A DNA stretch of 56,699 bases from an uncultured Gammaproteobacteria bacterium (GTDB lineage: Bacteria; Patescibacteriota; Patescibacteriia; Magasanikbacterales; GWA2-37-8). A program made the position numbers and the translations under genes. The DNA lies in assembly GCA_964356495.1 (NCBI GenBank), contig CAYHHR010000002.1:1-56699 (forward strand). The letters are read 5' to 3'. The first letter of the stretch is position 1, and each line of letters starts with the position of its first letter. A model generated the notes under the pieces. The model was not told where the DNA came from, did not search any database, and saw only the letters and a program-made list of their open reading frames with translations. Of this stretch, positions 25,341 to 54,655 are shown one piece after another.

Positions 25341-25358
25341 TTATAAATTTCGAAAAAG

Positions 25359-25381
25359 CCATCCCAAAAGGGTGGTTTTTT
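25359..25381 (+). terminator. Rho-independent terminator after secY
   Basis: cca(t)ccc-aaaa-gggtgg stem with one bulged T, followed by a T6 run. Confidence 0.5.
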
Positions 25382-25384
25382 GTA

Positions 25385-25417
25385 TTCCCCGCTTGGGCGG
25401 GGTAGGGGTGGGTTGGC
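25385..25417 (-). repeat. Family C element, copy C2 (intergenic, reverse orientation)
   Basis: ttccccgcttgggcggggtaggggtgggttggc is the reverse complement of C1 and C3. Confidence 0.85.
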
Positions 25418-25570
25418 GTTGTCATTGTCCTCCTCTTCCTTAAGAGGAGGTGCCCAACAGGGCGGAGGAGTTTCGTCGTCGATTTGTGTCGTCGCGAACC
25501 CGACTCCTCCGTCTCGCGCGAGCGAGCCACCTCCCCTTGAGAAAGGGGAGGACAGACAGTGCCTTACCAT
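25418..25570. repeat. Cluster of nested G/C-rich hairpin elements (family D)
   Basis: Three hairpins: cctcctctt-cctt-aagaggagg; ggaggagt...actcctcc; and gagcgagccacctccccttgagaaaggggagg, which looks like a hybrid of the family A arm and the family B hairpin. Confidence 0.7.
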
Positions 25571-25611
25571 TCTTTGTTTGGCCAAAATTAGCCAAGATCG
25601 TCGATTTAGGG

Positions 25612-25640
25612 TTGACAAAAGTCGAAATTTGTAGTATAAT
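25612..25640 (+). promoter_or_regulatory. Consensus sigma70 promoter
   Basis: TTGACA, 17-nt spacer, TATAAT, upstream of the ORF at 25709. Confidence 0.55.
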
Positions 25641-25708
25641 AATAAGCTGGTAATTCATGAAGTTGCTATACCACGCCGCAATCCTGCGGCAAAACGGGAG
25701 AAACAATC

Positions 25709-25963
25709 GTGAGTATCGGCGAGAAACTCGTTGTGACTTTCTTGTGTATGATGTTGGGGTGTTTATTGATGTCCGCGGTAATGCTCCCTCTTTTCATCTA
25801 CCAAGCGGCCGTGAAAACGCCGGCGCAGAAGGTTTGTGAAACCAAGGCAGTTTTCTTCCGCGACCCCATCAAGGCGGATGTTTGCTACGGGTTATCTGTT
25901 GTCCCAATCTCCTGCGACCAGGTGAAGGACAAGCTGGAGGATTACACTTCACCCAAGAACTGA
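25709..25963 (+). CDS. Small membrane/secreted hypothetical protein (GTG start)
   Basis: 84 aa with a hydrophobic N-terminal segment. The sequence gggag lies upstream of the GTG. A consensus promoter precedes the ORF and a strong terminator follows it. Confidence 0.45.
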   Translation: MSIGEKLVVTFLCMMLGCLLMSAVMLPLFIYQAAVKTPAQKVCETKAVFFRDPIKADVCYGLSVVPISCDQVKDKLEDYTSPKN

Positions 25964-25982
25964 GCAGAACAATCTGCTCCAC

Positions 25983-26020
25983 GAGCCGGACCTTTCAAGG
26001 TGCCGGCTCTTACTTTTTTA
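25983..26020 (+). terminator. Rho-independent terminator
   Basis: gagccgg-N13-ccggctc stem followed by a T-rich tail (ttactttttt). Confidence 0.6.
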
Positions 26021-26027
26021 CCAACTT

Positions 26028-26130
26028 CTCTCCCCTTTTAGGGGAGAGGCGAGGAGAGGGGAATTGTTTGGAAGTTTCGAGTTCGCGCGAATACCCCACC
26101 CACTGTCCCTCCCCTAATAGGGGAGGGGAA
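26028..26130 (+). repeat. Family E composite element, copy E1 (about 103 bp)
   Basis: ctctcccctttaggggagag + gcgaggagagggg..gttcgcg..ataccccacc..ccctcccctaataggggaggg aligns along its length with 44359..44463. Confidence 0.8.
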
Positions 26131-26140
26131 TTATGAAGGC

Positions 26141-26169
26141 TTGAAAAATCATGGTGTTTTTGTTATAGT
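26141..26169 (+). promoter_or_regulatory. Putative promoter for the 26197 ORF
   Basis: TTGAAA, 17-nt spacer, TATAGT. Confidence 0.45.
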
Positions 26170-26196
26170 AATCCTACTTAATTTTATTCAATTACT

Positions 26197-26487
26197 ATGG
26201 GTTTTTTTAGCTCCCCAGCGGAAAAATACTCGCAAATTGAACACAATTTTCCAACCGAGAAAATTAAACATATTTTTAACGCTCTTCGGATGACTAATTT
26301 GAATAATAACGAAGAGGATATCGTGGAGGCAGCCTTGATTGCGCGCAAGGGCAATGATGGCAAGATTTCCCTGCGTCAGATTTACAATACTCTGCATCAG
26401 TTGAAGCAAGAGTATAAAATCAGTAAAATTGATGAGCATAAGCTGATGGATATATTTGTCGAACATTTTAATGAATTTGAAAAATAA
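26197..26487 (+). CDS. Hypothetical protein (96 aa)
   Basis: Intact ORF with its own promoter-like sequence. I recognise no family. Confidence 0.4.
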   Translation: MGFFSSPAEKYSQIEHNFPTEKIKHIFNALRMTNLNNNEEDIVEAALIARKGNDGKISLRQIYNTLHQLKQEYKISKIDEHKLMDIFVEHFNEFEK

Positions 26488-26499
26488 GGTTACAAATCT

Positions 26500-30098: not shown

Positions 30099-31021
30099 TC
30101 CTCGGGAAGTAAAGTTACTTCAACAATTTCGGGAGGAGTCAAAAATCGGATCGCGAACAGCGACTCGCCCAGACCGTGCGTCACGAGAATCGGCAGGCCG
30201 CGCCAATTGAAAAATCCATCATAATATTTTTTACCGAGCTTTAGTCTGGCGTTTCCAATCGGACCGATAAACGGCAGGTGAACTTGCCCGCCATGAGTGT
30301 GGCCGGCAAGTACTAAGCTCGGTTTTTTTATTTTTTCCGGGTAAGATAGGATAGTGTCCGGGTTATGCGTTAGCACCAGAAGTGGCAGATCGTTTTTTGC
30401 GGATTTGATATTTTCCCACGAAGCCTTTTGTGCCCACAGGTCGTCAGTGCCATAAAGTTCTAAATTCTGGCCGCGCACGGAAACGCTGGCGAGCGAATTA
30501 CGAAGGATAATTACACCGGTCTTTTTAAGTGCCTCCATAACTGTTTCATGACGATCGGTAAATACTTTTTTCGGCTGATCGATTTTTTCATCGTAGTCTA
30601 ATCCATATTCATGGTTTCCAAGGACCGCATAGACGGGCATTTTTTTGGCTAATTTGGCAAACTCACGCAGGTCGCGCGCCTCCTTATCCGACGAAAAGTA
30701 TTCATTTGAAATTAAATCTCCGCCGAGAAAAACTAGGTCAGGTTTCAAATCAACAATTTTTTTAATAATTCGGTGGAGAAAACTTTTGCCTTTGAATTTC
30801 TTTATTTGAAGATCGGCGATGAAGGCGATCTTTATTGGTTTTTTGATGCCGGAAATCTTGCGGTTGAATTTTTTTATTTTTAAAAAATACGGCTCGAGAT
30901 GGATGTAGAACAAACCGGCCAGCAATATCCAGAGGACTGCCGACAGGGTCGGCGAATTAGAATAAACAAGCAGTACAGAAAGTGTGGCAGTTCCCGCCAA
31001 TAGGACTGAATACATTATCAT
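30095..31021 (-). CDS. Membrane-anchored metallophosphoesterase (YkuE-like)
   Basis: Two N-terminal TM segments, then the calcineurin-like motifs ADLQ, GGDLI, GNHE and GHTHGGQ. Confidence 0.85.
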   Translation of the reverse strand: MIMYSVLLAGTATLSVLLVYSNSPTLSAVLWILLAGLFYIHLEPYFLKIKKFNRKISGIKKPIKIAFIADLQIKKFKGKSFLHRIIKKIVDLKPDLVFLGGDLISNEYFSSDKEARDLREFAKLAKKMPVYAVLGNHEYGLDYDEKIDQPKKVFTDRHETVMEALKKTGVIILRNSLASVSVRGQNLELYGTDDLWAQKASWENIKSAKNDLPLLVLTHNPDTILSYPEKIKKPSLVLAGHTHGGQVHLPFIGPIGNARLKLGKKYYDGFFNWRGLPILVTHGLGESLFAIRFLTPPEIVEVTLLPED

Positions 31022-31042
31022 ATGAGGGTACTTATAGAATAT

Positions 31043-31909
31043 TTATTCATCTCGAGCGGTCAGATGAATAAGATCCGGCGGTACCTTTCTAACTCGCACT
31101 GTCTGTTTGCCTTCCATAACTAATCTTACTAATCTATGCAGTCCGTCCAAGGTCAACCATTTTCCTTTTTTGTTTTTCATTATATCAATCGGGTAGGAAG
31201 TGTCCGCCTTCTTAATTTTGTCTTGGTGTTCCGGGTAATGATCAAGGTTATTCATCACTTCTTTTGGAGTAAAAACAATATTACCCTGTATGTCTTCCCA
31301 AAAAGGCACATCTAAAATCCAAAGTAATTCTTCAATGTTCATTTCCTCAATTGGGACTTTTAACGCCCATAATTTTGTATTATCTCTCCAAAAAGGTAAA
31401 TCAAAAGCATGTTCCACATGTCGGGGGTCAACATGAGTTTCTTGGTTTTCTTTTTTCGGTTTTGTGAGAATTATATTGCCAGCGTTAGTTACACCTTTTA
31501 CAACAAAGCCAAACGACTTATAAAAAGTTGTTAGATGTGTAGATGCAGGGTCGTGCGTAATGGAAAAATAAGTATACAAGTTTGGGTATTTATTTTTTAA
31601 TATCATATTTATCAGTGTCTTTCCGACACCTTTTTTCCGATGTTCCTTTTTTACAAATAAGCCGTCGATAAAAATGGAATTTGGAAAATAACGCCGGTCT
31701 TTATCAAAAAATTGGCATAAAATATATCCGATTACCTCGTCATGAATTTTTGCAACCCACACCAACTTATTTTTTAGTGCTAAGTCGATTTCGGCGGCAA
31801 TTTTAATTTTTGTTTTTGTATCATCATCTTCGTATAACAACGAATGCAGTTTGATTATAGCATTTTTGTCTTTTGAGGTTGCTGATGAGTATATTATGTC
31901 GTCAGACAT
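31043..31909 (-). CDS. GNAT N-acetyltransferase fused to a ParB/Srx-like C-terminal domain
   Basis: The N-terminal half has a GNAT acetyl-CoA motif (V.KEHRKKGVGKTL). The C-terminus (..YPIDIMKNKKGKWLTLDGLHRLVRLVMEG..V.V) fits the ParB/sulfiredoxin DGxHR core. The gene is AT-rich. Confidence 0.55.
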   Translation of the reverse strand: MSDDIIYSSATSKDKNAIIKLHSLLYEDDDTKTKIKIAAEIDLALKNKLVWVAKIHDEVIGYILCQFFDKDRRYFPNSIFIDGLFVKKEHRKKGVGKTLINMILKNKYPNLYTYFSITHDPASTHLTTFYKSFGFVVKGVTNAGNIILTKPKKENQETHVDPRHVEHAFDLPFWRDNTKLWALKVPIEEMNIEELLWILDVPFWEDIQGNIVFTPKEVMNNLDHYPEHQDKIKKADTSYPIDIMKNKKGKWLTLDGLHRLVRLVMEGKQTVRVRKVPPDLIHLTARDE

Positions 31910-31918
31910 ATGATGATT

Positions 31919-32488
31919 CTAGTCTTTTTTTAACTTAATTAGATCGATAAATTCACGTGCATTTTTTGAAATTCTGATGTTATAGCGAGTTTTTCTTCCT
32001 TTAACCAAAATTGTATATTTGTTGGCTTTGAATTTTAATGAGTCAATAATCTCCATTACATCTATGGCAAGTGAAGGTGTTGTGGTTACAAAATTCACCA
32101 TTATGTAGCCTCTGTCATTATAAATCGAACCGTCGGTTTCTATTAGCCCTCTTAGGCAGGCAATTGAATATTTTGCATCACTTTTAATCCAATTTGGTAT
32201 CTTGACTTTTTGCACGTTTTTACTGCCGCCCTTCGCCTTCCAGCCCAATAGTTGTTCCCACTTATTCGAATAGCAGCTTATATCGACGTAGCTGTCTTTA
32301 CCGCCCTTAATAGTCGATACTTTATTTTTCGGAGCCACTAGCTGAATTGATTCACAAATGCGTTTAATAAGTTTTGGATAATTTGTATCGCAGGTTATTC
32401 TCAATCTAACAGCCCGGCCATTTGGATTAGAAAGATTTCCATCGCCAAGCGCTAGCCCTATTACGTAGGCTAGAATTTTCTTTTTCAT
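31919..32488 (-). CDS. Free-standing double-motif LAGLIDADG homing-endonuclease-like protein
   Basis: Two LAGLIDADG motifs: LAYVIGLALGDGNL and IACLRGLIETDGSI. The ATG at 32488 is preferred because the longer ORF-track start overlaps tRNA-Leu. Confidence 0.75.
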   Translation of the reverse strand: MKKKILAYVIGLALGDGNLSNPNGRAVRLRITCDTNYPKLIKRICESIQLVAPKNKVSTIKGGKDSYVDISCYSNKWEQLLGWKAKGGSKNVQKVKIPNWIKSDAKYSIACLRGLIETDGSIYNDRGYIMVNFVTTTPSLAIDVMEIIDSLKFKANKYTILVKGRKTRYNIRISKNAREFIDLIKLKKD

Positions 32489-32504
32489 ATTTGAATTGGT
32501 ATAG

Positions 32505-32586
32505 TGCCGCCGGTCGGAATCGAACCGACATGCCGTTAAGCGCACGATTTTGAGTCGTGAGTGTCTACCAGTTCCACCACGGCGGC
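32505..32586 (-). tRNA. tRNA-Leu (anticodon CAA)
   Basis: Cloverleaf read on the minus strand: GCCGCCG acceptor stem, anticodon arm CACGA-CTCAAAA-TCGTG, long variable arm, and GGTTCGATTCC T-arm. CCA is not encoded. Confidence 0.85.
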
Positions 32587-32705
32587 TAAACGTGTATCAA
32601 GCTAGTACCACGGGAAAAATTATGGTAATTTTACCGATAAACTGGCCTTTTGTCAATCCTTAGATAATATGATAAACTAAAGGGGTTCGAAGTTCAAAAA
32701 ATTCT

Positions 32706-43348: not shown

Positions 43349-43855
43349 ATGCCAAAAGATTTAACCAAAGAACAGGTGAATACCGGACGCGTGGTATTTG
43401 AATGGCTCATCAATGAATATGAGCAGTATGATCGTAGCCGCCGCTGGTATTTTTTGATGATTTTTTTTGGGTTGTTGCTGGTCGCGTACGCTTTGCTCAC
43501 GGCGAATTATTTATTTGCTCTCGTAGTTATTTTATTCGGCATCGTGCTATATGTTCACGAGATTCAGCCGCCCATTGAGGTATATTTTGGCATCACCGAA
43601 ACCGGGATTATCATCGGTCGTAAGTTTTATCGTTACAGCGAGCTTGAAGGATTTTGGCTGATCTACAATCCGCCCGAAGTTAAAAATTTATATTTCCGCC
43701 TAAAAAATGTCGTTCGTTTTCGCGTAAAGATTCCTCTCCTTGATTATGATCCGCGGCCGGTTCGGGAATATATCAAACAATTTTTGACTGAAGAAACAGA
43801 GCACGAAGAGGAACCGTTGTCGGATCGTCTAGCCAGGGTTTTGAAAATTCATTGA
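43349..43855 (+). CDS. Hypothetical membrane protein (two TM segments plus a soluble C-terminal domain)
   Basis: 168-aa ORF with two adjacent hydrophobic helices, followed by a strong terminator. Confidence 0.55.
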   Translation: MPKDLTKEQVNTGRVVFEWLINEYEQYDRSRRWYFLMIFFGLLLVAYALLTANYLFALVVILFGIVLYVHEIQPPIEVYFGITETGIIIGRKFYRYSELEGFWLIYNPPEVKNLYFRLKNVVRFRVKIPLLDYDPRPVREYIKQFLTEETEHEEEPLSDRLARVLKIH

Positions 43856-44504: not shown

Positions 44505-46664
44505 ATGGTTCATATGGATCTCCAAACTAGGATCGAAGCTCTAAACAAAGTCGGGAAGACGACTGCTAAAAAGCTGGAACGGCTTGGTATTTTTACTGTT
44601 AATAATTTACTTCATCATTATCCGTTTCGTTACGAAGATTTTAGCCGCGTCGCGCCGATCAAGGATTTGCGCGAGGGCGATTCGGTGACGGTGAAAGGCG
44701 TGATTGAATTGATCGCCAATCGTCGGATTCGCAACCGACGCAGTCTTACCGAAGCCCTGCTTACCGATGAGACCGGCAGTATCAGGCTGATCTGGTTTAA
44801 TCAGCCGTACCTCACAAAAAATCTCGAGACCGGCACGGAAGTATATATTTCCGGCGTGATAAAACATGATGCGCTCGGTTTGCAGTTCGTGAGTCCCGCC
44901 TATGAATTAGCCTCGCGACGTAATATTCACACCGCTCGCCTGGTGCCGATGTATCCTCTCACCGAAGGGATCACACAGAAGCAGGTGAGATTTTTGGTTG
45001 AGCAATCATTGCCGGCCGCGCCAACCATAAGTGATTGGTTGCCGGAGAAAATTAAGAAGGAAAATAATCTGATCGCGTTGCAGGGGGCGATTAAGCAAAT
45101 TCATTTTCCAGAATCTGACGCGCAAATGAATTTGGCCACCGAGCGTCTGAAGTTTGATGAATTATTTTTGATTCAGCTCCAGGCGGAACTCGCTCGCCAC
45201 GAGCAAACTATTCTAAGGGCGCCAGTGTTGGCATTTCATGAGGAAGAAATAAAAAAGTTTGTGGCTGGTCTGCCGTTTACTCTCACCAAGGATCAAAAAA
45301 TTTCGGCTTGGGAAATTCTACAAAATATTGCCGGCGAAGTGCCGATGAACCGGCTGTTGTCCGGCGACGTCGGATCCGGCAAGACCGTGGTCGCCGCCGT
45401 TGCTCTCTACAATACCGTTCTTTCCGGTTTCCAGGGGATCATGATGGCGCCAACGGAGATTTTGGCAACGCAGCATTTTGATTCGGTCTGCAGATTGTTG
45501 CAGGATCAGACGCTAGTATTGTTTACTCGTTCACATCATTTAATATTTAAGAATCGAGAGAAGTTCGAGGTTTCAAAGAAAGAACTGCAAAAGATAATCG
45601 CCACCGGCGAAGCGAACGTGATCATTGGGACGCATGCTTTGCTGTCGGAAGGGGTTGAGTTTAAAAATGTTGGCCTCGTGGTCGTGGACGAACAGCATCG
45701 TTTCGGAGTATTGCAGAGGAAAGTGATTAAGAGCAAAGGAGGGCAAACCCCACCTAACCTCCCCTTGGAAAGGGGAGGGAGCCACGCCGTGCACTTTCTC
45801 AGCATGACGGCGACGCCGATCCCGCGTTCGCTCGCTCTGATGGTCTATGGTGATCTTGATGTTTCTGTAATCAGAGAAATGCCGCCGGGAAGAAAACCGG
45901 TTATGACCAGGATCGTCGAGCCGCGAAATCGCGACAAGGCTTATGAATTTATTCGAAAAGAAGTTGGGAAAGGCGGACAGGTGTTTGTGGTTTGTCCGTT
46001 GATTGACGCCAACCCACCCCTACCCCGTCCGAGCGGGGACTTCATTGTGAATGATAAAAAATCGGTAATGACTGAATACAAAAAATTATCTGAAAATATT
46101 TTTCCGAATTTGAGAGTCAATTATCTCCACGGTAAGATGAAAGGTGAAGAAAAAGAAAAAATAATGGCGCAGTTTAAAAATAAGGAATATGATATTCTGG
46201 TTTCGACTTCGGTGATCGAAGTCGGAGTGGATGTGCCAAACGCGACCATTATGTTGATCGAGGGAGCCGAGCGGTTTGGGTTGGCGCAGCTGCATCAGTT
46301 CAGAGGGAGAGTGGGGAGGGGCGACCGGCAGTCTTATTGTTTTGTATTTACGGACAGCGAGACCTCTCCCTACCCTCTCCTCTGTGGAGGCGAGGGTTCA
46401 CGAACTATGGAGCGGTTGCGTTTTTTTGAAAAACATCAGAACGGTTTCGAGCTGGCCGAAAAAGATTTGGAGTTGCGTGGTCCCGGGGAAGTCTATGGGA
46501 CGACGCAGAGCGGAATGATGCAACTCCGCCTAGCTAAGCTTTCGGACACCGCGTTAATAAAAAAAGCCCGCGAGTCAGCGCGAGTTATTTCATCTCAACT
46601 TTCAGAATTCCCGGAGCTCATTAAAAAAATGAAAGAGTGGGAAGAGTCGGTGCACTTAGAATGA
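44505..46664 (+). CDS. recG: ATP-dependent DNA helicase RecG
   Basis: Wedge/OB N-terminal domain, then GDVGSGKT, VVDEQHRFGV, MTATPIPRSLA, VIEVGVDVPNA and FRGRVGRG. Carries three in-frame repeat insertions. Confidence 0.95.
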   Translation: MVHMDLQTRIEALNKVGKTTAKKLERLGIFTVNNLLHHYPFRYEDFSRVAPIKDLREGDSVTVKGVIELIANRRIRNRRSLTEALLTDETGSIRLIWFNQPYLTKNLETGTEVYISGVIKHDALGLQFVSPAYELASRRNIHTARLVPMYPLTEGITQKQVRFLVEQSLPAAPTISDWLPEKIKKENNLIALQGAIKQIHFPESDAQMNLATERLKFDELFLIQLQAELARHEQTILRAPVLAFHEEEIKKFVAGLPFTLTKDQKISAWEILQNIAGEVPMNRLLSGDVGSGKTVVAAVALYNTVLSGFQGIMMAPTEILATQHFDSVCRLLQDQTLVLFTRSHHLIFKNREKFEVSKKELQKIIATGEANVIIGTHALLSEGVEFKNVGLVVVDEQHRFGVLQRKVIKSKGGQTPPNLPLERGGSHAVHFLSMTATPIPRSLALMVYGDLDVSVIREMPPGRKPVMTRIVEPRNRDKAYEFIRKEVGKGGQVFVVCPLIDANPPLPRPSGDFIVNDKKSVMTEYKKLSENIFPNLRVNYLHGKMKGEEKEKIMAQFKNKEYDILVSTSVIEVGVDVPNATIMLIEGAERFGLAQLHQFRGRVGRGDRQSYCFVFTDSETSPYPLLCGGEGSRTMERLRFFEKHQNGFELAEKDLELRGPGEVYGTTQSGMMQLRLAKLSDTALIKKARESARVISSQLSEFPELIKKMKEWEESVHLE
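45742..45783 (+). repeat. Family B element, copy B4, in frame in recG
   Basis: ggcaaaccccacctaacctccccttggaaaggggagggagcc is read in a different frame from B1 and B3 (QTPPNLPLERGGS). It lies between helicase motifs II and III. Confidence 0.85.
46009..46042 (+). repeat. Family C element, copy C3, in frame in recG
   Basis: ccaacccacccctaccccgtccgagcggggactt encodes NPPLPRPSGDF, in the same frame as C1. Confidence 0.85.
46356..46402 (-). repeat. Family A half-element, copy A3 (reverse orientation), in frame in recG
   Basis: agcgagacctctccctaccctctcctctgtggaggcgagggttca is the reverse complement of the right half of A1 and A2. It encodes ETSPYPLLCGGEGS. Confidence 0.8.
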
Positions 46665-46732: not shown

Positions 46733-48091
46733 TTAAGTGTGTTTGATGATCTCCTGGATATTTTTGATATCGAGGATTTTAATTCTCCCACTCCCCCCCG
46801 TCCCCTCTCGGGCAGAGGGGGATATATTCTTTCCGATGTTAGATAGCACTCGTTTCAACCCGAGCTGTTCGCATTCTTTAATTCTTTTTTCAATCTGAAC
46901 AATCGGCCGAACTTCGCCGCCGAGTCCGACTTCTCCGAAGACGACGAGATCGCCGCCGAGGGGTTTGTCTTTGTAGGCGCTCGCGATGGCGAGAGCGATG
47001 GCGAGGTCAGCCGCCGGTTCGTCGGCAGTAAGTCCGCCGGCGATGTTGATGTGGATATCGTAGCTTTCGAGTTGGAGTTTGGCGCGTTTTTGTAGAACGG
47101 CGATGAGGACGTGCAGACGATTCAAATCAAAACCGCTGGCCTTGCGGGTCGGATAGCCAAAGGCGGTCTTGGTGACCAAGGCTTGAACCTCGACGAGAAG
47201 CGGGCGCGTACCCTCGATGAGGCAGGTCAGAACGTTTCCCGGTAGATTTTCTCCTCGCTCCGAGAGAAAAGCGGCGGAAGGATTTTTGACTTCGCGTAGA
47301 CCGCCCTCATGCATTTGGAATACTCCGACTTCATCAGTTGATCCGAAACGATTTTTCACGGTTCTGAGGATTCGATAAAAATGATGTCGGTCACCCTCGA
47401 GATATACGACCGTGTCTACCAGATGTTCGAGAGTTTTTGGCCCGGCGACGATGCCTTCTTTGGTGACATGGCCGACGATGATGGCGGTGGTCGAAGTTGG
47501 CTTCACGGCCTCGAGGAGTTTGGTGGTGCAAGCGCGGATCTGAGTGGGGGAGCCGGCTTCGCCCTCGACTTCATTTGAAAAAATTGTTTGCATCGAGTCG
47601 ATGATCACGAGCGTTGGTTTTTGAAACAGAATCGTCGCGATGATTATTTCGATGTTAGTTTCGTTGGCGAGCTCTAAGGTTTTGGAATTTATGTTGAGTC
47701 GATCGGCGCGAAGTTTTATTTGGCCGATTGATTCTTCTCCGGAAATTACCAGCGAGTTCGGAATTTTTGCGGCCATTTCGATCGTTAGGGTAGATTTTCC
47801 GATTCCTGGTTCGCCGCCGAGCAGGATCAGACTGCCGGGGACGAGACCGCCACCCAGCACCCGATCAAGTTCGTCGATATTAGTTTTTACTCGTTTGACA
47901 CCTTCACTTTTTATTTCTCCAAGCTTTACCGTCTTCGCCGGTTCAACGTCAGATTTTTTATTTTCTGCTCCTGTCATTTTACCTTCGGCGATTGTGCCCC
48001 ATTTTCCGCATTCTAAACAACGTCCAGTCCATTTGGAGTACTGAGCGTCGCAGGAGGAACATTTGAAGATGGTTTTATTGTCGTTTTTCAC
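46733..48091 (-). CDS. radA: DNA repair protein RadA/Sms
   Basis: N-terminal zinc finger (CSSC..C.ECGKW), Walker A (GGEPGIGKSTL), KNRFG, and a Lon-like C-terminal domain. Contains a repeat-derived insertion near the C-terminus. Confidence 0.95.
   Translation of the reverse strand: MKNDNKTIFKCSSCDAQYSKWTGRCLECGKWGTIAEGKMTGAENKKSDVEPAKTVKLGEIKSEGVKRVKTNIDELDRVLGGGLVPGSLILLGGEPGIGKSTLTIEMAAKIPNSLVISGEESIGQIKLRADRLNINSKTLELANETNIEIIIATILFQKPTLVIIDSMQTIFSNEVEGEAGSPTQIRACTTKLLEAVKPTSTTAIIVGHVTKEGIVAGPKTLEHLVDTVVYLEGDRHHFYRILRTVKNRFGSTDEVGVFQMHEGGLREVKNPSAAFLSERGENLPGNVLTCLIEGTRPLLVEVQALVTKTAFGYPTRKASGFDLNRLHVLIAVLQKRAKLQLESYDIHINIAGGLTADEPAADLAIALAIASAYKDKPLGGDLVVFGEVGLGGEVRPIVQIEKRIKECEQLGLKRVLSNIGKNISPSAREGTGGSGRIKILDIKNIQEIIKHT
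46784..46823. repeat. G/C-rich hairpin element K, in frame in the radA 3' region
   Basis: tctcccactcccccccgtcccctctcgggcagagggggat contains the hairpin cccctct-cgggc-agagggg and resembles half of family E. It encodes SPSAREGTGGSG on the minus strand. Confidence 0.6.
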
Positions 48092-49428
48092 AGACAGCCG
48101 TTTGACATCGTGGGTTTTTCAAAATGCCAGGCTTCTATATTCAAACTGCAAAAGCCCGCATCCTTCATCGCTTGAATCACCGCTGCTTGGCAAGGATCCG
48201 CTCGGCAGGGGTCAGTGGCCGGATTGCTCGTGCAGTCTTTTTGCTGGACACATTGGACACCATTTTTTTCTCCCCACACATCAACCGCCCTCCCAGTAGT
48301 ATGTGGACAATTTTTTGGATCATTTTGATACAATGGACACGTGTATGGCGCGCCCGGTTTTGGGTTGCAATCGAGGGATCCGACCGGATTTTGGCAATTT
48401 TTCTGTATGAGCGCGATTTGTTGATCAAGGGAACGTAACCCACTGGCAACATAAAGCAAAATATTTTGGTTTTTCAGATTAACCGCGGCGGTTTGGAGCG
48501 CCGGAAGGATCGTAATGTTATCAACCAGAACACCATTATTCGCAGTTAGATTGTCGCCGAGTACGTCTACTTGGTTTGCGGCCGAGGCAGGTGCTTGGCC
48601 GGTGGTGATCCCGAATTCATGTTCCTCTGGAGCTGGATAAATAAATTTCACCTTCAACGCCTTAAACTGCACTAGCTCTGGATTGATAGTATAGAATAAA
48701 AAATATGAACTCCAGAGGATCATCAGTCCGATGACGGCCTGGGTAATATTTTTCACGCCGGCATTTTTTTGCTCGCCACCAGCGGATACTGTGATGCGAA
48801 AGCCACCAACGACGATCATGATCGCCGCTAGGATACTTGATGCCGCAAGCGCGAATTTATAAACCGCGGCTAGATATTCGGCTAGAGAGGTGAGGTGGAG
48901 GTAACCCTCCGAATCAACCGTTTGGTCAATTGGTTTAAAATTCAGACCAGGGATTTTTATTTCCAGCGAGGGGTTGCTTATTTTGACTACCTCGCCGATC
49001 CCGAGGATGCCGGTTGCGTTCGGGTCTGTTGGCGGAACAATCTGTGGAGCGTTCGGATCGTAGTAGCAAGTGTCGTTTAGACATTTAGGTGTCCCTGGTT
49101 GTTTGCAATCGACGGCATTCATACAGGGAAGAAAGCTGTTGGTGAGGCCAAAATCTTCGCAACTGGCCGGCGAGCAGGTATCGGTAGAGCAGTAAATGCA
49201 GTTGGAATACCTTACTTCCTGAGTTCCACCGCTAATTCCTTGGCCAGAAACATAGTCCGTTAATTCCCCGGCGCATTCAAACGCTGAAGCTACCGGTTTG
49301 CCGTAGCAGGGGGTTGGAGAGTCTAATTGTGGAACGGTGGTGCATTTACACGATCCGGCAGAAACAAATTTCGGCTGTAAAAAAAACACCAACCCAACAC
49401 TCAAAATCAAAAAAAGAAAACGCTTCAT
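48088..49428 (-). CDS. Secreted Cys-rich protein with a central VirB2/TrbC-like pilin TM hairpin and a C-terminal VanY/M15-type peptidase domain
   Basis: Signal peptide, then 12 Cys in the first roughly 120 aa. AASSILAAIMIVVGGFRITVSAGGEQKNAGVKNITQAVIGLMILW fits the T4SS-pilin-like pattern. The C-terminus has SGLRSLDQQ, HTTGRAVDV and EAWHFE, as in M15 peptidases. Confidence 0.6.
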   Translation of the reverse strand: MKRFLFLILSVGLVFFLQPKFVSAGSCKCTTVPQLDSPTPCYGKPVASAFECAGELTDYVSGQGISGGTQEVRYSNCIYCSTDTCSPASCEDFGLTNSFLPCMNAVDCKQPGTPKCLNDTCYYDPNAPQIVPPTDPNATGILGIGEVVKISNPSLEIKIPGLNFKPIDQTVDSEGYLHLTSLAEYLAAVYKFALAASSILAAIMIVVGGFRITVSAGGEQKNAGVKNITQAVIGLMILWSSYFLFYTINPELVQFKALKVKFIYPAPEEHEFGITTGQAPASAANQVDVLGDNLTANNGVLVDNITILPALQTAAVNLKNQNILLYVASGLRSLDQQIALIQKNCQNPVGSLDCNPKPGAPYTCPLYQNDPKNCPHTTGRAVDVWGEKNGVQCVQQKDCTSNPATDPCRADPCQAAVIQAMKDAGFCSLNIEAWHFEKPTMSNGCL

Positions 49429-49430
49429 AA

Positions 49431-50081
49431 CTATTTAGCGGTTAAAGTCGAGAGCAAATCGGAAATATTGATATCCAGTTTCGTATTTAATTTTTTATTG
49501 TTTATAAATATTAAAGGCGGCGCGCCAAGTTCGAGGCCTCTCGCTTCGTCGTAATCTTTTTGGATGGCTGCGATAGTATTTTCGGACGCCAGGCAGGCCG
49601 ACCATAAAGGCAGATCAAGTCGCGTGTCCTCGGCGGCTTTCTGGAGTCCGGACTGGCGCAAATCGTAATCGCGCGAAATTAAATTATCCAAAAATGACCA
49701 AAGTTTATGCTGTAGTCCGGCGCAGTAGGCGGCCTTATGGGCGAGGACACCGTCGGAAAAGAGCTGCGCGACCGGCGCGTGTTTGAAGACAAGACGAACC
49801 CCGGGATTTTTTTCAGCAAAGCTACTCAGCTCCTCGTGTAAGATTCGGGCTTTGGAATTTCCGAGATCTTGGTATTCGACGACGATTAATTGTCCGCCCG
49901 GATTCAGACTTTGATCAGTGGGAGAAATGTTGAGCGGAGTGCTAGCGTCGGCGATGAGTGGTTCGGTTGAGGCCGAGGTCGTGATTGATTGAAAATTATT
50001 AATTTCTTTCCAAAGCATGAGACCGATAATGGTCGTGAGGATGAGGAGGATGGCGTAGAGTTTTTTGTTGGTGAAGGTCAT
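49431..50081 (-). CDS. DsbA/thioredoxin-fold protein lacking the CXXC active site
   Basis: N-terminal TM segment. It aligns to the DsbA-like pattern (..VEY.D......AR...E.......VR.VFKH.P.....AH.AA.CAG.Q.K.W.F...L...GAPPLIFIN.K), but GNSK stands where CPxC is expected. Confidence 0.6.
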   Translation of the reverse strand: MTFTNKKLYAILLILTTIIGLMLWKEINNFQSITTSASTEPLIADASTPLNISPTDQSLNPGGQLIVVEYQDLGNSKARILHEELSSFAEKNPGVRLVFKHAPVAQLFSDGVLAHKAAYCAGLQHKLWSFLDNLISRDYDLRQSGLQKAAEDTRLDLPLWSACLASENTIAAIQKDYDEARGLELGAPPLIFINNKKLNTKLDINISDLLSTLTAK

Positions 50082-50087
50082 ATAGTT

Positions 50088-51320
50088 TTAGAGAGCAACC
50101 TGGAAGGCGCCGGTTTGATGGTGGTCCGTAAAAATTACTTTTCGGCCGGCGGCATCGTAGGAAATAGAATCAATCGTGTAATCTTTGTCGAGCGGCAGGG
50201 GGGTGCGAATGCCGGTCTTGATGTCAATTCGGAAGAGATCGTCAGGGGTGTCGGCCGCGATGGCAGGCGACATGCCGGCGCCTTCGGGCAGAGATCGCGG
50301 CACCCCGCAAACGAGCGTGCTGTCATCGGCAAAGGCGCATTTTTTGGCCCAGGTGTTTACCTGCAAAAGTTGCCGGCCGGCGCCGATATTATCTCCGTAG
50401 GAATTTACGATCCAGAGTTCCGGTTTGAAATCGCTGCGCGCGCTGTCGACGCTATAAAGTAATTTTTGTCCGGTGGGCGACCATTGCGGCTGAAAATCCA
50501 GCCCCTCAACCACGATGGATTTGAAATTTTCTCCATGCAACCCGAGGAACAATATTTCCTTGCGGTCGGCGCCTTGCGCTTCGCCAGTTTGGGAGAAGGC
50601 GACCGTCTGCCGGCTTGGCGACCAATCCATTGTTACTTTGTCGGCGTTGTTGCCGAGCGGTTCGATCAGTTGAGCGCCTGAGCCGTCGTCTTTGGTGGTA
50701 ATCAGCCAGCGATTTTCCGGCGCGAGGCCGAGACTCTTGGCAGCCAGCTCGGTGCTGTCGGGCGAGAAGCTAAAATCTTCCCAGTGTTTCGGGAGCGAAG
50801 TTTGAGTTTTGGTTTCGAAGTTGTAAATAATTTTGCTGTTGTCGGGATATTCGATGACGGCCTTGTTGGCCGTTTTTGCCCAGACGACGTTTTGAACATT
50901 ATAAAATACCTGGTCGCTCAGCGAGCGCATTTTTCCGTCTGGCCCCAGGGAATAAAATTTCCCATCAGTTTCGTTATGAAAGCGAACGCTGCCATTTGAT
51001 AGAGAAGGGAAGAGCGCGTTTTCGGAGATGAGTTTGGTGACCGCCGCCGGTTTATAATAATTTTCATTGGTGGAACCGATGATGACGTTCGCGCTCGGCA
51101 ATATCCCTGGCCCGCTAACGCCGGCGCCGCCGGTAGTGGTGGCGCGAAAACCGGCGCCCGGTAAAGCTCCGCTCGGTACGCCGCCCGGTCCGATTGCTCC
51201 CGGTTGACTTGGCCCTCCGGTCTGTCCTTTTTTGAAAACGCTATAGAGCGCGAAACCAATTACAAAAGTGATACCGAGGAGGCCGATGATAAGGAGGAGG
51301 CGTTTGAGAGTGGGGTTCAT
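50088..51320 (-). CDS. Membrane-anchored TolB-like beta-propeller (PD40 repeat) protein
   Basis: N-terminal TM segment, a Gly/Pro-rich linker, then repeated F/W-SPD/SP..G..LA/Y motifs (FSFSPDSTELA, MDWSPSRQTVAF, PQWSPTGQKLLY). Confidence 0.65.
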   Translation of the reverse strand: MNPTLKRLLLIIGLLGITFVIGFALYSVFKKGQTGGPSQPGAIGPGGVPSGALPGAGFRATTTGGAGVSGPGILPSANVIIGSTNENYYKPAAVTKLISENALFPSLSNGSVRFHNETDGKFYSLGPDGKMRSLSDQVFYNVQNVVWAKTANKAVIEYPDNSKIIYNFETKTQTSLPKHWEDFSFSPDSTELAAKSLGLAPENRWLITTKDDGSGAQLIEPLGNNADKVTMDWSPSRQTVAFSQTGEAQGADRKEILFLGLHGENFKSIVVEGLDFQPQWSPTGQKLLYSVDSARSDFKPELWIVNSYGDNIGAGRQLLQVNTWAKKCAFADDSTLVCGVPRSLPEGAGMSPAIAADTPDDLFRIDIKTGIRTPLPLDKDYTIDSISYDAAGRKVIFTDHHQTGAFQVAL

Positions 51321-51357
51321 AATTAGTGAAAATTTTTAATTTTGCAATTTTTAAAAA

Positions 51358-52089
51358 CTACGCGGCATTTTGAACTTGTTCGCGCGCGGCGGAAATCTCC
51401 ATTCCTCGTAGATCGGCCAGCGCCGCCTTTCGTTGCTGTTCTTGTTGGAATTGTTTTTCTAGTGGTACTAAAATTTTGTTTATTTCTTTTATCGCCTTAA
51501 CTATCGTTTTTGTTATTGGTCCTTCTTTGTAGAATATATAAACTATTATCCAGGGAATATAAATAATAATCAATAATATCGGGATGATGATAGTCTCAGA
51601 TAAGAGCGAAAAAGCTTCGCCCCAAGACATCGAACCGTCATAAATAGCCGCGCCGGTTTTTGCCAATTTTAATTTCCCTCTAATTTTTTGTAAAGTTTTA
51701 ATTTTTAATGCCAAGTTTGATTTTGCCATGAAACGGTTTATTAAGGCGCTGACAAAAGGTATTTTTTTGATTACCATACCCATCGGACCGTTGAAAAGTT
51801 TGCTGGCAAGATTCGCGCCTAAATCTTTTTCTTCTGAGAGTTTAACCATGGCTTTTCTGATATTTTCACTTCGCTGTCGATTGACATCCAGTTTCGTTTT
51901 GATGTCTCTTTGTTGATCTTCTCCGACTTCCTCTTGCGCTCCGGCGGGAGCCTTTTTCGAAACAGTCGTAATATCGCCGGAAATTTCTCCGGACCGGTCG
52001 TCATTCATCATGAGGCCAGAAGACACCGCGGTTTGATCGTTCGCGGCTAGGTCCGGCGGGTTTGCCATCGCATTCTCTCCTTCGGCCAT
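51358..52089 (-). CDS. Hypothetical membrane protein
   Basis: 243 aa with an acidic, disordered-looking N-terminus, one strong TM segment (IIIPILLIIIYIPWIIVYIF) and a coiled-coil-like C-terminus. It is tightly packed in the clpC-radA strand block. Confidence 0.5.
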   Translation of the reverse strand: MAEGENAMANPPDLAANDQTAVSSGLMMNDDRSGEISGDITTVSKKAPAGAQEEVGEDQQRDIKTKLDVNRQRSENIRKAMVKLSEEKDLGANLASKLFNGPMGMVIKKIPFVSALINRFMAKSNLALKIKTLQKIRGKLKLAKTGAAIYDGSMSWGEAFSLLSETIIIPILLIIIYIPWIIVYIFYKEGPITKTIVKAIKEINKILVPLEKQFQQEQQRKAALADLRGMEISAAREQVQNAA

Positions 52090-52094
52090 AGAAA

Positions 52095-54599
52095 TTATTT
52101 AACTAATAAAGTATTGTCGCTGACGACCAGCGTGTAACTTTTTTTTACTTTTCGTCGCAGAATTATATCGGTCATTAGTCCCTCCACCTGTTCGCGAATC
52201 AATCTTCGGACATCGCGCGCGCCGCTCTTCGCCTCCGGCAGTTGCGAGATCACCCACTTCAGCACTTTCTCATCGGGCAGAATCGCAGTTTGATAATGGC
52301 GGAGCTGTTCGTTGAAACGTTTTAGTTCGAGTTCGGCGAGCCTCTCCAGTATCGAAGTGTCCAAGGTATTGAAGAAACAAACGCGATCAAGCCGGTTGAT
52401 CACTTCCGGGGAGAAATATTCTTTGAGTTTGTCCGTCAGGCGCTGTCGCGTTTCCTTGGCATTTTCGGTCGCGTTGCCGAATCCAAATGAATTTTTTTTC
52501 AATTCTTCGGAGCCATAGGAAGTGGTCAGAATTATGATCGCGTGGCGAAGCGAGACCGTCTTGCCGGTCGAATCCGTAATTTGTCCGTTCTCGAGGATTT
52601 GTAACAATAATTTCACGATGTCGCGGTGCGCTTTATCGATCTCATCGAACAGAACTACGCAGTGCGGGTTCATTTTAATTTTATCAGTAAAGTGGTTGCT
52701 TTCCTTGTAGCCGATATATCCGGCCGGGGAACCGAGCAGCTTCGAAACACCGAAGCTCTCGTTGAATTCGCTCATGTCTAATTTTATGAAGGCTTCCGGA
52801 TTGGCATAGAGGACTTTGGCGAGAGTCTTCGCGAGTTCGGTTTTGCCGACGCCGCTTTCGCCGACGAATAAGCATGAGGCGAGCGGCCGTTCGGGATTGC
52901 TGAGGCCGAGCTTCGCGCCGCGTATCAATCGGCTGACGTCCCTCACCGTTTCATCTTGTCCGACAATAAATTTTTTTAGTTTCGCTTCAAGCTGATCGAG
53001 CGACTCCGAATCGTCCAGCAAAAGATCGCTTGGCTTAGTGCCGATGATCTTCGCGACCTGTTCGAGAACATCGCGTTCGGTGATCGCGCCGACCATGACG
53101 ATTTTTTTATCCCTGCTTTCCACGGCGGCTTTTTTTAGCTCGGCGCGAAGCTCATCTTCTTCTTTTTTGAGACGAACCGCATCGGTGAATTTATCCGCTC
53201 TGGCCGCGGTTTCTTTGGCGGCAACGGTTTTTTCCAGTTTTTGCTCCAGCCGTGAAATTTTACTTTGCGGTCCGGCCTTGATTGTCAGGCGTTTCGCGGC
53301 CGCGGTTTCATCGATGAGGTCGATCGCTTTGTCAGGCAAAAATTTATTGGTGATGTAGCGCTGAGATAGGCGAACGGCGGCGGCGATCGCTTCGTCGCCG
53401 ATTATAATTTTGTGGTAAAGCTCATAATTTTGTTTCACGCCTTTCAGAATGGTGGTGGCGTCTTCGACGCTGGGCTCTCGCGCGAAAATAGTTTGGAAGC
53501 GGCGCTCAAGAGCGGCGTCATTTTCAATGTATTTTTTGTATTCGGCTGGAGTGGTCGCGCCGATACAGCGTAACTGTCCGCGGGAGAGCGGCGGCTTCAG
53601 GATGTTGGCGGCGTCCATCGTGCCTCCATTACTTCCGGCGCCGACGATATTGTGAACTTCATCAATAAATAAAATAATGTTTGGATTGTTGATCGCTTCG
53701 TCGATAACTTGGCGGAGGCGCGCTTCAAATTCGCCGCGATAAATCGTGCCGGCGATCAGCATGCTCATGTCGAGACAATAAATTTTTTTGGTTGAAAGGA
53801 GGTCCGGAACTTTCCCCTCGATAATTCTTTTGGCAAGGCCTTCGACAATCGCGGTTTTGCCGACGCCCGGTTCGCCGAGCAGAAGCGGATTATTTTTGGT
53901 GCGGCGGCAGAGGATTTGGATAACGCGTTCAATCTCGTTTTCCCGTCCGATTACCGGGTCAATATTTTTTTGGATTGAGGGATCGGTAAGGTCGGAAGCA
54001 AAAAAACTCAAAGCCGATTCTTTCTTTTTGGCGGACTTTGGCAGGGCGGCCCCCTCGAGGTTGATATTATCGGTGATGTTCTCCTCGATTTTTTTGACTA
54101 CTTCGGCGACTTCGGTGAGGTGAGGGAAGTGCGTGGCGTTGGCGAGCACGGTGTCAATTTGTCTTTGGAGATCGTCGATATCGACGGCATTAACCTGTAA
54201 AATATCCAGCGTCAGCGGATCTTCGAATTTCACAAGCGCCGCGAGCAGGTGCTCGGTCCCGATGTAGTTGTGTCGATTTTCCTCCGAGATTATCATTGCT
54301 TTTTCTAAGACATCTTTGGTATTTTGTGAGAGCGGAGTCATGGTGTCGTCGGTCGCCTTTCCCGACGTGTGGAGCATATCAACTTTGCGCGTCGGAAGGC
54401 TGAGCAGAGCCTCCTCGATCGATTTGGTAGTGATTTGGACGCGGCTCACGATTTCGGTGGCTACCGAACCGTGTTGATTTGAGATTGAAAAGAAGAGGTG
54501 GATCGGTTCAACCTCGATATTTTTCAGTTCCGCGCTAAGATGGATACTGCGGGCCAGTACGTCTCGAAGATGAGAAGAAAAACGGTCTAAAAGATTCAT
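52095..54599 (-). CDS. clpC: Class I Clp/Hsp100 AAA+ ATPase, ClpC-like
   Basis: Clp_N repeats, two AAA modules ([30 protein letters not shown]), and a short middle domain. An FGF loop (KNSFGFGN) sits where ClpP-docking loops occur. The length of 834 aa fits ClpC better than ClpB. Confidence 0.85.
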
Positions 54600-54655
54600 A
54601 AAATATTGCTAATTTAGTACGGATATTGTACACTGTTTTTATTCGTTAGTCAAAA

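Follow-up and report, generated by a model that had tools for sequence, protein, structure and literature searches.

The clpC-A-B-C-D-radA locus

The window, by which we mean the whole 56,699-nucleotide stretch of DNA analyzed here (contig CAYHHR010000002.1 of assembly GCA_964356495.1, Magasanikbacterales in the GTDB taxonomy), carries on its minus strand six consecutive open reading frames (ORFs) in the order clpC-A-B-C-D-radA. An earlier note on this DNA described genes A to D as an envelope cassette inserted between clpC and radA, and the gene order, strand, and gaps that it gave (5, 37, 6, 2, and -4 nt) match the ORF listing exactly. The last of these values is a 4-nt overlap, in which GTGA is common to the stop codon of D and the GTG start of radA. 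The 5' side of clpC faces a divergent phosphoglucomutase gene, and radA is followed by a convergent recG. The clpC product is a double-AAA+ ATPase of the ClpA/B family whose matches to ClpA- and ClpB-family NCBIfam models all fall under the equivalog cut-offs. The products of A to D are supported as membrane-bound or extracytoplasmic, as had been predicted for all four. Rfam and tRNA scans gave no match in or beside the cassette. Coordinates are collected in Table 1.

The TTGACT-17-TACAAT site listed there is the region's best match to a sigma-70 consensus and is the likely start of a clpC-A-B-C-D-radA transcription unit, for which the terminator-like hairpin beyond radA is the likely end. A weaker promoter-like site lies inside A. 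Minus-strand terminator-like sites were found only inside clpC and about 150 nt past radA, with none between A and radA. The packing of the genes, together with these promoter- and terminator-like sites, makes co-transcription of all six plausible.

Domain architecture of the four proteins

The AlphaFold model of D, with a predicted local distance difference test score (pLDDT) of 80, comprises a signal peptide, a beta-rich domain, a disordered spacer, two transmembrane (TM) helices, and a C-terminal domain. Hydropathy and the model agree on a signal-peptide helix at residues 2-16 and on the helices of a membrane hairpin at 181-214 and 219-248, joined by the loop SAGGEQKNAGVK. A signal peptide followed by two hydrophobic helices and a short cytoplasmic loop is the layout of VirB2/TrbC. 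Because a cleaved signal peptide combined with a hairpin leaves both flanks on the same side, the two ectodomains are predicted to face outward. They measure about 100-150 aa before the hairpin and about 190 aa after it, and hold all 22 Cys residues (12 in the first, 10 in the second), which leaves the hairpin free of Cys. The N-terminal ectodomain ranges from 60 to 400 aa among D orthologues. At the end of the signal peptide, here and in homologues, stands a conserved A-G-S-C compatible with the loose PROSITE lipobox pattern; D may be lipidated at Cys27 besides being anchored by the hairpin, or Cys27 may simply be the first disulfide Cys.

The pilin core of D has a conserved P-x-L-x-I-x-IPG lead-in, a short loop with basic residues between the helices, and an NP-x-LV-x-FK tail. 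Against Pfam family T4SS_pilin (PF18895) the D protein of the window scores 25.0 bits (E = 2e-5; cut-off 26.6). The D proteins that we label L008, P0013, and L002 score 27.9-30 bits, over the cut-off, and 43 of 81 D orthologues match at E < 1e-3, the best at E = 6e-9. At 446 aa, with its large ectodomains, D lies well outside the size range of small pilins, roughly 70-120 aa (a typical pilin has ~100 aa), and in the window it does not lie beside virB4, as it does in sister lineages.

The C-terminal domain adopts the LAS fold of M15 peptidases. Its top Foldseek matches are VanX (1r44), the endolysin Ply500 (2vo9), VanY (5hnm), LysB4, and LdcB, with a probability of 1.00 to VanX, Ply500, VanY, and LdcB (4mph). 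The catalytic set R332, H376-x6-D383, and E432-x-W-H435 is invariant among 22 homologues (alignment A3), and the zinc peptidase is therefore probably active. Although fold and the R, H-x6-D, and E-x-x-H residues agree with VanX, VanY, LdcB, Ply500, and LysB4, identity to these enzymes is just 14-24%, and D differs from them in its Cys-rich insertions and its fusion to a pilin core. The Pfam VanY profile gives 17.3 bits, below its cut-off of 25; orthologues reach E = 1e-12 to 1e-13. The description of D as a Cys-rich, pilin-like protein fused to an M15 domain is borne out at the level of fold, and the intact catalytic site fits the cell-wall remodelling role suggested for the cassette.

Gene C encodes a TM anchor (residues 6-28) followed by a DsbA-like thioredoxin fold with a helical insert. 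It scores 23.5 bits against Thioredoxin_4 (cut-off 23.2) and 21.4 bits against DSBA (below the cut-off of 25.6), neighboring orthologues are annotated as both, and GNSK stands in place of the CXXC of orthologues, in agreement with its first description as a DsbA-fold protein that lacks this motif. The cis-Pro region (PPLIFINNK) and two other Cys residues are conserved. CXXC is present in 58 of the 81 sequences of an orthologue alignment and absent from the other 23; it is present in 95 of the 127 orthologues placed on a neighbor-joining tree of B proteins. On that tree, which makes the loss count approximate, CXXC is the root state and has been lost independently at least ten times, and the C protein of the window belongs to a 12-member clade without it. 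The idea that loss of CXXC in C tracks loss of Cys in D was rejected, since D has 22 Cys in lineages without CXXC. That D is still Cys-rich where C lacks the motif suggests that C has a role not needing redox chemistry.

Gene B encodes a TM anchor (residues 3-31), a disordered Gly/Pro-rich linker (32-89), and a beta-propeller (94-410), modeled by AlphaFold at pLDDT 79. The propeller is extracytoplasmic, contains an invariant Cys pair (C328, C338), and is probably a seven-bladed propeller of the PD40 type. Foldseek matches to the model are generic propellers only (tricorn, WD40, oligogalacturonate lyase), mostly seven-bladed WD40 proteins, and a sequence-profile search against Protein Data Bank chains returned only a chance Rhs match (E = 0.3). 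The earlier designation of B as a membrane-anchored TolB-like propeller is correct for the TM anchor and for the PD40 propeller fold, but likeness to TolB does not extend beyond the fold. Scores against PD40 and TolB profiles are weak and far under the cut-offs; the TolB model TIGR02800 gives 22.6 bits where the cut-off is 343 and covers only two blades, and the N-terminal domain that TolB equivalogs have is missing. Unlike TolB, moreover, B is TM-anchored and its propeller probably has seven blades; no tol or pal genes occur in the window, and the organism is monoderm.

Gene A begins, as noted before, with an acidic segment, which is of low complexity (13 Asp/Glu against 4 Lys/Arg in residues 1-62). 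A basic amphipathic segment (residues 63-156, 20 Lys/Arg) follows, then a single 34-residue hydrophobic stretch (157-190, by hydropathy) and a charged, probably helical C-terminal tail. The hydrophobic stretch has a central Pro and positive charge on both sides, which points to a membrane hairpin with both termini in the cytoplasm; A is probably a mostly cytoplasmic protein tethered by that hairpin. No Pfam or NCBIfam family matched A.

Conservation of the gene order

The D and B homologues are patescibacterial, and the named records among them are Candidatus Magasanikbacteria, class ABY1. D homologues led to ten contigs or genomes, and B to 80 GTDB species representatives, in which gene order was compared. 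The locus scans covered the best 80 loci each of 282 and 252 relatives, with ORFs called crudely (first start codon after a stop) and classified by phmmer. Metagenome contigs with links to type IV secretion or pilus genes, described below, are placed taxonomically by similarity alone. Many of the species representatives, which are metagenome-assembled genomes (among them L010-L016, L020, L024, and L025), are titled "uncultured Gammaproteobacteria bacterium"; their gene content here is Magasanikbacteria-type, and the titles are apparently placeholders or mislabels.

The order clpC-A-B-C-D-radA, flanked by the phosphoglucomutase gene and recG in opposite orientation, occurs at nearly all loci with enough flank in about 80 species-level Magasanikbacteria genomes, with B identity to the window of 47-94%. 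The four-gene set is thus co-conserved, which the earlier note had made the test of its proposal. On its further question, whether the set always sits between clpC and radA, the answer is yes for essentially every such Magasanikbacteria locus but no for other lineages, in which the upstream partner varies. B-C-D-radA stays in order even where B identity has fallen to 36-40% and the flanking genes are different. Upstream of B-C-D-radA(-recG) we found clpC-A at about 80 loci, genes of a type IV secretion system (T4SS) at about eight, a divergent type IV pilus operon at five, and LemA/M48/phosphoglucomutase genes at seven. As judged by gene order, then, the constant unit is B-C-D-radA(-recG), a wider unit than the clpC-linked cassette. 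The radA gene is its constant downstream partner across lineages, and clpC is the upstream neighbor in Magasanikbacteria, outside the class-wide module. Given these varied upstream neighbors, the phrase "inserted between clpC and radA" describes one order-level state and does not tell how the unit arose. A recent mobile insertion was also considered and rejected: GC content and skew are unremarkable over 46-55 kb, there are no flanking repeats, and the arrangement is shared order-wide.

B is the slow-evolving anchor of the module. Its relatives number 282 in GTDB species representatives, and the family forms 241 clusters at 50% identity (E <= 1e-30). The matches listed are about 400-430 aa long, apart from a few shorter and likely partial ones, and none has a fused extra domain. 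Each locus showed a single B gene, and in degree of identity B keeps pace with clpC, radA, and recG, a housekeeping-like slow rate. The A position, across loci, always holds one ORF, of 142-834 aa, with a common core motif ET-IIxP-I. Jackhmmer joined 76 loci into one family, all Magasanikbacteria-type. Identity of A to its counterpart in the nearest species (L008) is 54-56%, against 94% for B. By these sequence comparisons A is a fast-evolving family, of which profile searches detect only Magasanikbacteria-type members.

Rapid exchange of the enzyme domain of D

Between the window and L008, identity is 94% for B, 91% for radA, 89% for recG, and 88% for C. Within D it is 90% for the pilin core, 52% for the N-terminal domain, and 34% for the C-terminal domain. 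The same pattern of a constant pilin core with a variable C-terminal enzyme runs through 81 D-position proteins, whose C-terminal domains match VanY (17), Peptidase_C39_2 (11), Amidase_2 (10), Peptidase_M15 (9), SLT (6), GDSL lipase (3), Metallophos (3), Peptidase_M15_4 (2), and M23 (1). Exchange occurs even between close relatives. Where the window has M15, the D protein P0013, probably from the contig that also bears the B homologue P0052 (about 85% identical to the B of the window), has NlpC/P60; L009 (B 68% identical to the window) has a C39-like domain, L011 (64%) has Amidase_2, and L014 (61%) has a tandem D pair, one C39-like and one SLT. Tandem duplicates of D occur at about 12 loci, and D is missing from two (L032 and L059). 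D is thus not a fixed member of the cassette.

Linkage to type IV secretion and type IV pilus genes

The main functional lead is a T4SS link, at which the pilin domain hints and which the earlier note did not draw. In L005 the order is T4_651-PrgI-TraC-like-VirB4-x188-x176-pilin-B-C-D-radA-recG, and a metagenome scan seeded with the L005 B protein found this arrangement again in L090-L092, with more distant T4SS-linked versions in L150, L154, and L165. In all of these the T4SS genes precede B-C-D on the same strand. For L150, Pfam confirms PrgI, a TraC-like protein, a VirB4-type ATPase, and T4SS_pilin (E = 3e-11). At the Buchananbacteria-like locus L141, clpC, an A-like gene, and B lie beside recG, comFC, and an inverted T4SS operon, with T4SS genes and comFC within 5 kb. 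The ComFC-type gene (L141, 12690-13382) ends the operon T4_651-PrgI-TraC-like-VirB4-x188-comFC, beside recG, consistent with a published note on competence genes in ABY1 T4SS loci, which commonly include comF, recG, and radA (PMC12102498). A VirB4 search seeded from L141 returned, as its best 120 matches, only closer relatives, and the class-named ones were mostly Buchananbacteria.

Several pilin-core proteins of the T4SS-linked loci (L005, 6648-8030; L090, 8353-9936 and 11976-13487; L150, 8474-9964) have a different C-terminal extension, which is Cys-rich, roughly 250-330 aa long, and ends in C-x-LNIT-x-x-(E/Q)(F/Y)P-(D/A)R. No Pfam match was found for it in the L150 protein, the only one scanned, and none is on record for L005. 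The small membrane protein that T4SS-linked loci encode after virB4 and before the pilin gene (x176 or an equivalent) has the position and architecture of A and, like A, an "ETII.PI" motif. Homology of the two was considered and rejected as unsupported, since Jackhmmer made no link in either direction and hhalign gave 27% probability over 17 hydrophobic columns.

A second kind of linkage appears in five loci (L149, L156, L160, L161, and L164), where B (~10000-11200) is divergent beside pilM, pilN/O-like ORFs, pilB, pilC, and a pilin gene. A ComFC-like gene and then thrS lie downstream of B, except in L149, where C-D-radA takes that place. In this lineage a small CPHC thioredoxin-like membrane protein is encoded a few genes downstream of B.

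The window itself contains no secretion-system genes among its annotated ORFs; the VirB3/PrgI, TrsD/TraC-like, VirB6/VirB8-like, and VirB4 set of a monoderm (MPF-FATA-like) T4SS is absent from it, and it has no pilin-core gene besides D. VirB4, PrgI, and TraC-like genes are likewise missing within 10 kb in Magasanikbacteria loci. All seven Magasanikbacteria genomes among our loci that appear in Table S1 of PMC12102498 (L015, L042, L044, L060, L071, L081, and L085) nevertheless have VirB4, so a T4SS exists there, unlinked and more than 10 kb from the module.

Proposed function and alternatives

We regard the cassette, with a confidence that we would place about midway between doubt and assurance, as the Magasanikbacteria form of a class-ABY1 envelope module B-C-D, a wall-opening and folding accessory, probably co-transcribed with radA, of a T4SS/pilus and DNA-transfer apparatus. 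The module would serve trans-envelope transfer machines, namely a T4SS of the monoderm type, which has VirB2-like pilins, and also a type IV pilus/competence system in some lineages. D would be exported by Sec and held in the membrane by its VirB2-like two-helix hairpin, with the Cys-rich domains outside and the M15 zinc peptidase cutting peptidoglycan stem peptides locally, in the role that VirB1, PrgK, and TraG have in other T4SSs. C with CXXC would be a membrane-tethered DsbA-like foldase for the disulfide-rich ectodomains of D; C without CXXC, as in the window, would act on them only as a chaperone or scaffold, like TraF of the F plasmid. The B propeller, on its long flexible linker, would serve as the conserved scaffold, placing the complex within the wall, and A would be a lineage-specific membrane-hairpin partner on the cytoplasmic side.

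The pilin core of D is of the kind that marks Patescibacteria T4SS loci, in which VirB2-like pilins are frequent while most VirB2-bearing genomes have no recognizable VirB1 (PMC12102498). A fusion of pilin and hydrolase would fill that gap. The D-position enzymes (M15/VanY, Amidase_2, SLT, NlpC/P60, C39-like, and M23) overlap the domain types of PrgK and TraG, the wall hydrolases of monoderm T4SSs, which carry SLT, CHAP-type, and LytM/M23 domains.

Several observations weigh against the accessory role. No T4SS gene lies within 10 kb in the window or in any Magasanikbacteria locus, T4SS linkage is found in a minority (about eight) of the loci with enough flank, and the five pilus-linked loci show that B is not T4SS-specific. 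The genomes of Patescibacteria are compact and broadly syntenic, which makes adjacency weaker evidence than in larger genomes. The D protein of the window falls just under the PF18895 cut-off and is far larger than any known VirB2 pilin. Fast enzyme swapping and tandem duplication would be surprising if the target were the unchanging wall of the cell itself, and the GDSL-lipase and metallophosphoesterase variants are not classic wall hydrolases.

These last features are better accounted for if the module is a weapon directed at a host, which we consider rather doubtful overall. D would then be a set of polymorphic lytic effectors whose pilin core anchors them at the contact zone or builds into a T4SS pilus; exchangeable enzymes and Cys-rich binding domains would breach the host envelope, with B and C as assembly factors. 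The C-terminal enzyme differs between close relatives whose cores are about 90% identical, the N-terminal domain of D is hypervariable too, tandem copies bear different enzymes (as in L014), and the lipase and phosphoesterase variants resemble antibacterial effector repertoires. Cultivated Patescibacteria, moreover, are obligate epibionts, and delivery of effectors has been put forward, as speculation, for their essential T4SS (PMC10633639, PMC11665869). On the other side, the two-helix anchor and a linker of about 35 residues would keep the enzyme near its own wall unless it is cleaved or polymerized, no immunity gene is evident next to D, and the wall hydrolases of secretion machines also vary between mobile elements.

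It is unlikely, in our judgment, that B-C-D is an ordinary housekeeping module of peptidoglycan turnover, growth, or division unrelated to secretion, its neighbors radA, clpC, T4SS, and pilus genes reflecting the frozen synteny of small genomes and its hairpin being merely a membrane anchor. B is conserved like clpC, radA, and recG, single at each locus and never fused; the surroundings in the window are all core genes, most loci have no secretion genes nearby, and M15 LD-/DD-carboxypeptidases, LdcB among them, ordinarily serve in wall maturation. A change of catalytic class between sister species, loss in L032 and L059, and doubling would be unexpected in such a module, however. The hairpin is a specific, conserved PF18895-type core and not a generic anchor, and the upstream partners have come repeatedly and independently from trans-envelope machines, not from mur, fts, or mre genes. 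Were this explanation true, the locus would be a well-documented lineage-specific operon of modest interest.

A bolder extension, which we think quite unlikely, would have D act as a true pilin: ABY1 Patescibacteria would build T4SS-type filaments or contact-zone arrays that bear exchangeable lytic enzymes and Cys-rich binding domains, an "enzyme-on-a-pilin" that opens the host wall and feeds T4SS- or pilus-based uptake of DNA and nutrients, with B as a wall-spanning platform and C as foldase or chaperone. If true, it would explain the lock of these genes to radA, recG, and comFC. That the four are unrelated membrane genes merely packed between two housekeeping genes is very improbable: A does lack detectable relatives outside one order, but B-C-D-radA persists to 36-40% B identity despite changed flanks, the gaps are 2-6 nt or overlapping, and the parts fit logically, a disulfide-rich exported enzyme lying beside a DsbA-like protein.

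Relation to known systems

The published Patescibacteria T4SSs, MPF-FATA-like with arrays of VirB2-like pilins (Wang et al. 2023, PMC10633639; Quinonero-Coronel et al. 2025, PMC12102498), share the PF18895 core with D. In sister ABY1 lineages B-C-D follows PrgI, TraC-like, VirB4, and pilin genes, and the published radA/recG/comF association is reproduced in our loci. Unlike those systems, the window has no T4SS gene, and the published repertoires list no propeller, DsbA-like protein, or pilin-enzyme fusion. In the part of the supplement text of PMC12102498 that was searched, Thioredoxin_4, PD40, VanY, and RadA do not occur near virB4. Full-text literature searches (PF18895, T4SS_pilin, Magasanikbacteria plus T4SS, and related terms) found no description of a propeller/DsbA/pilin-hydrolase module, of a pilin-enzyme fusion, or of B-C-D-radA linkage. 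The locus is related to known T4SS-associated pilin and wall-hydrolase functions, in a combination not described in the literature searched.

The closest functional counterparts of D are the membrane-tethered peptidoglycan hydrolases VirB1 of diderms and PrgK, TraG, and TcpG of monoderm conjugation systems, with which its enzyme series overlaps in SLT, CHAP/NlpC-like, and M23 domains. The enzyme in the window differs in being an M15 zinc peptidase and not a transglycosylase or CHAP domain, and it has a pilin-type hairpin for an anchor instead of one TM helix. At the Pfam level, where the comparison was made, no homology of D to VirB1 or PrgK was found.

For C, the F-plasmid T4SS offers what we regard as a direct precedent, by analogy, for both states within one kind of system. 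It encodes TrbB, an isomerase with CXXC, and TraF, which lacks CXXC and is needed for pilus extension independently of redox chemistry (PMC11315126). All are extracytoplasmic thioredoxin-fold proteins, those of the F plasmid being encoded with a pilus-forming T4SS, and the orthologues of C show both CXXC states. The likeness is drawn from these features. C differs in its TM anchor and its DsbA-like fold (Thioredoxin_4, with a helical insert), and its two states arose within one orthologous family by repeated loss, whereas TraF and TrbB are two paralogues.

The Bacillus subtilis operon ctsR-mcsA-mcsB-clpC-radA-disA likewise has clpC and radA on one strand and in one probable transcription unit. 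Here, by contrast, four envelope genes separate them, and ctsR, mcsA, mcsB, and disA are all missing from the window. Because radA in related lineages keeps B-C-D without clpC, the clpC-radA pairing is not the conserved feature. The competence-induced wall hydrolases CbpD and LytF of streptococci, whose regulation is shared with genes for DNA uptake and recombination (radA among them), offer a further parallel to D, and LytF is reported to aid extrusion of the competence pilus (PMC12424861). They differ from D in that neither anchor nor architecture is homologous and in that co-regulation here is read from gene order only.

For the essential T4SS of Patescibacteria the surveys searched list arrays of VirB2-like pilins, few VirB1-like hydrolases, and no propeller or thioredoxin-fold partner. 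To these the locus adds a slow-evolving three-gene module that accompanies radA class-wide and, in several lineages, directly adjoins a T4SS operon. It also adds a group of pilin-core proteins in which at least eight types of enzyme have been exchanged as outer domains, and a natural series of DsbA-like orthologues with and without CXXC. The module supplies concrete candidates for passing a transfer machine through the cells' own wall, or that of a host, in ultrasmall monoderms, and ties envelope machinery to recombination genes in a way that can be tested.

Other features of the window

Table 1. Coordinates of genes, protein segments, signals, and minor features in the window
Feature	Position	Strand	Description
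clpC	52095..54599	(-)	834 aa; Clp_N, two AAA modules, AAA_lid_9, ClpB_D2-small
gene A	51358..52089	(-)	243 aa
gene B	50088..51320	(-)	410 aa
gene C	49431..50081	(-)	216 aa
gene D	48088..49428	(-)	446 aa; Sec signal, two Cys-rich ectodomains, two-helix membrane hairpin
D signal peptide	49350-49428		residues 1-27
D N-terminal ectodomain	49054..49356	(-)	residues 25-125; variable, Cys-rich, beta-rich; pLDDT ~70-80
D pilin core	48643..48981	(-)	residues 150-262; VirB2-like
D enzyme domain	48091..48576	(-)	residues 285-446; M15 (LAS-fold) zinc peptidase domain, Cys-rich insertions; pLDDT >90
radA/sms	46733..48091	(-)	452 aa; TIGR00416 515 bits, cut-off 403
Sigma-70-like promoter match	54625..54653	(-)	TTGACT-17-TACAAT; 56-nt divergent spacer clpC/phosphoglucomutase gene
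Weaker promoter-like site	51666-51694		inside A
Terminator-like hairpin and T-run	46567..46584	(-)	~150 nt after radA, inside the 3' end of convergent recG
Palindromic repeat copies	7321-7371, 7696-7757		uvrB
Palindromic repeat copies	45734-45784, 46006-46044, 46353-46400		recG
Palindromic repeat copy	845-906		uvrD-like
Palindromic repeat copies	9000-9050; 12540-12573; 25381-25419
secY/adk interval	25341-26499		1.15 kb
Low-GC region	31000-32600		GC 34% vs ~46%
Membrane protein gene beside recG	43349-43855		168 aa; weak DUF5673 match

The annotated parts of the window consist of core genes throughout. They include genes of translation and secretion (S12/S7/EF-G, secY-adk-map), repair and recombination (uvrB, ruvX, recO), and chromosome maintenance and stress response (parAB, relA/spoT, topA, dprA), together with pth, der, a LytR-family gene, recG, and the phosphoglucomutase gene. 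A search of public RNA runs turned up none with the cassette region, and the labeled DNA runs with the region are groundwater metagenomes.

GC-rich palindromic repeats of 35-60 nt, in several families (for example CCCCACCTAACCTCCCCTTGGAAAGGGGAGGGAGCC), are dispersed over the window. Several copies lie inside housekeeping ORFs with the frame intact, reminiscent of the in-frame palindromic elements of Rickettsia; the four cassette genes are free of them. The secY/adk interval contains such repeats and matches nothing in Rfam, and none of its ORFs exceeds 96 aa; it may be what remains of a gene, or a spacer rich in repeats, in an otherwise tight ribosomal-protein/secY/adk/map cluster. The low-GC region holds an ORF for a GNAT acetyltransferase and one with a LAGLIDADG domain and adjoins tRNA-Leu(caa), which a maximal ORF overlaps; it looks like a small acquired island or the remnant of a homing endonuclease. 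The DUF5673-like membrane protein gene that adjoins recG is kept beside recG in Magasanikbacteria-type, T4SS-linked, and Buchananbacteria-like loci, and an equivalent is present in most loci.

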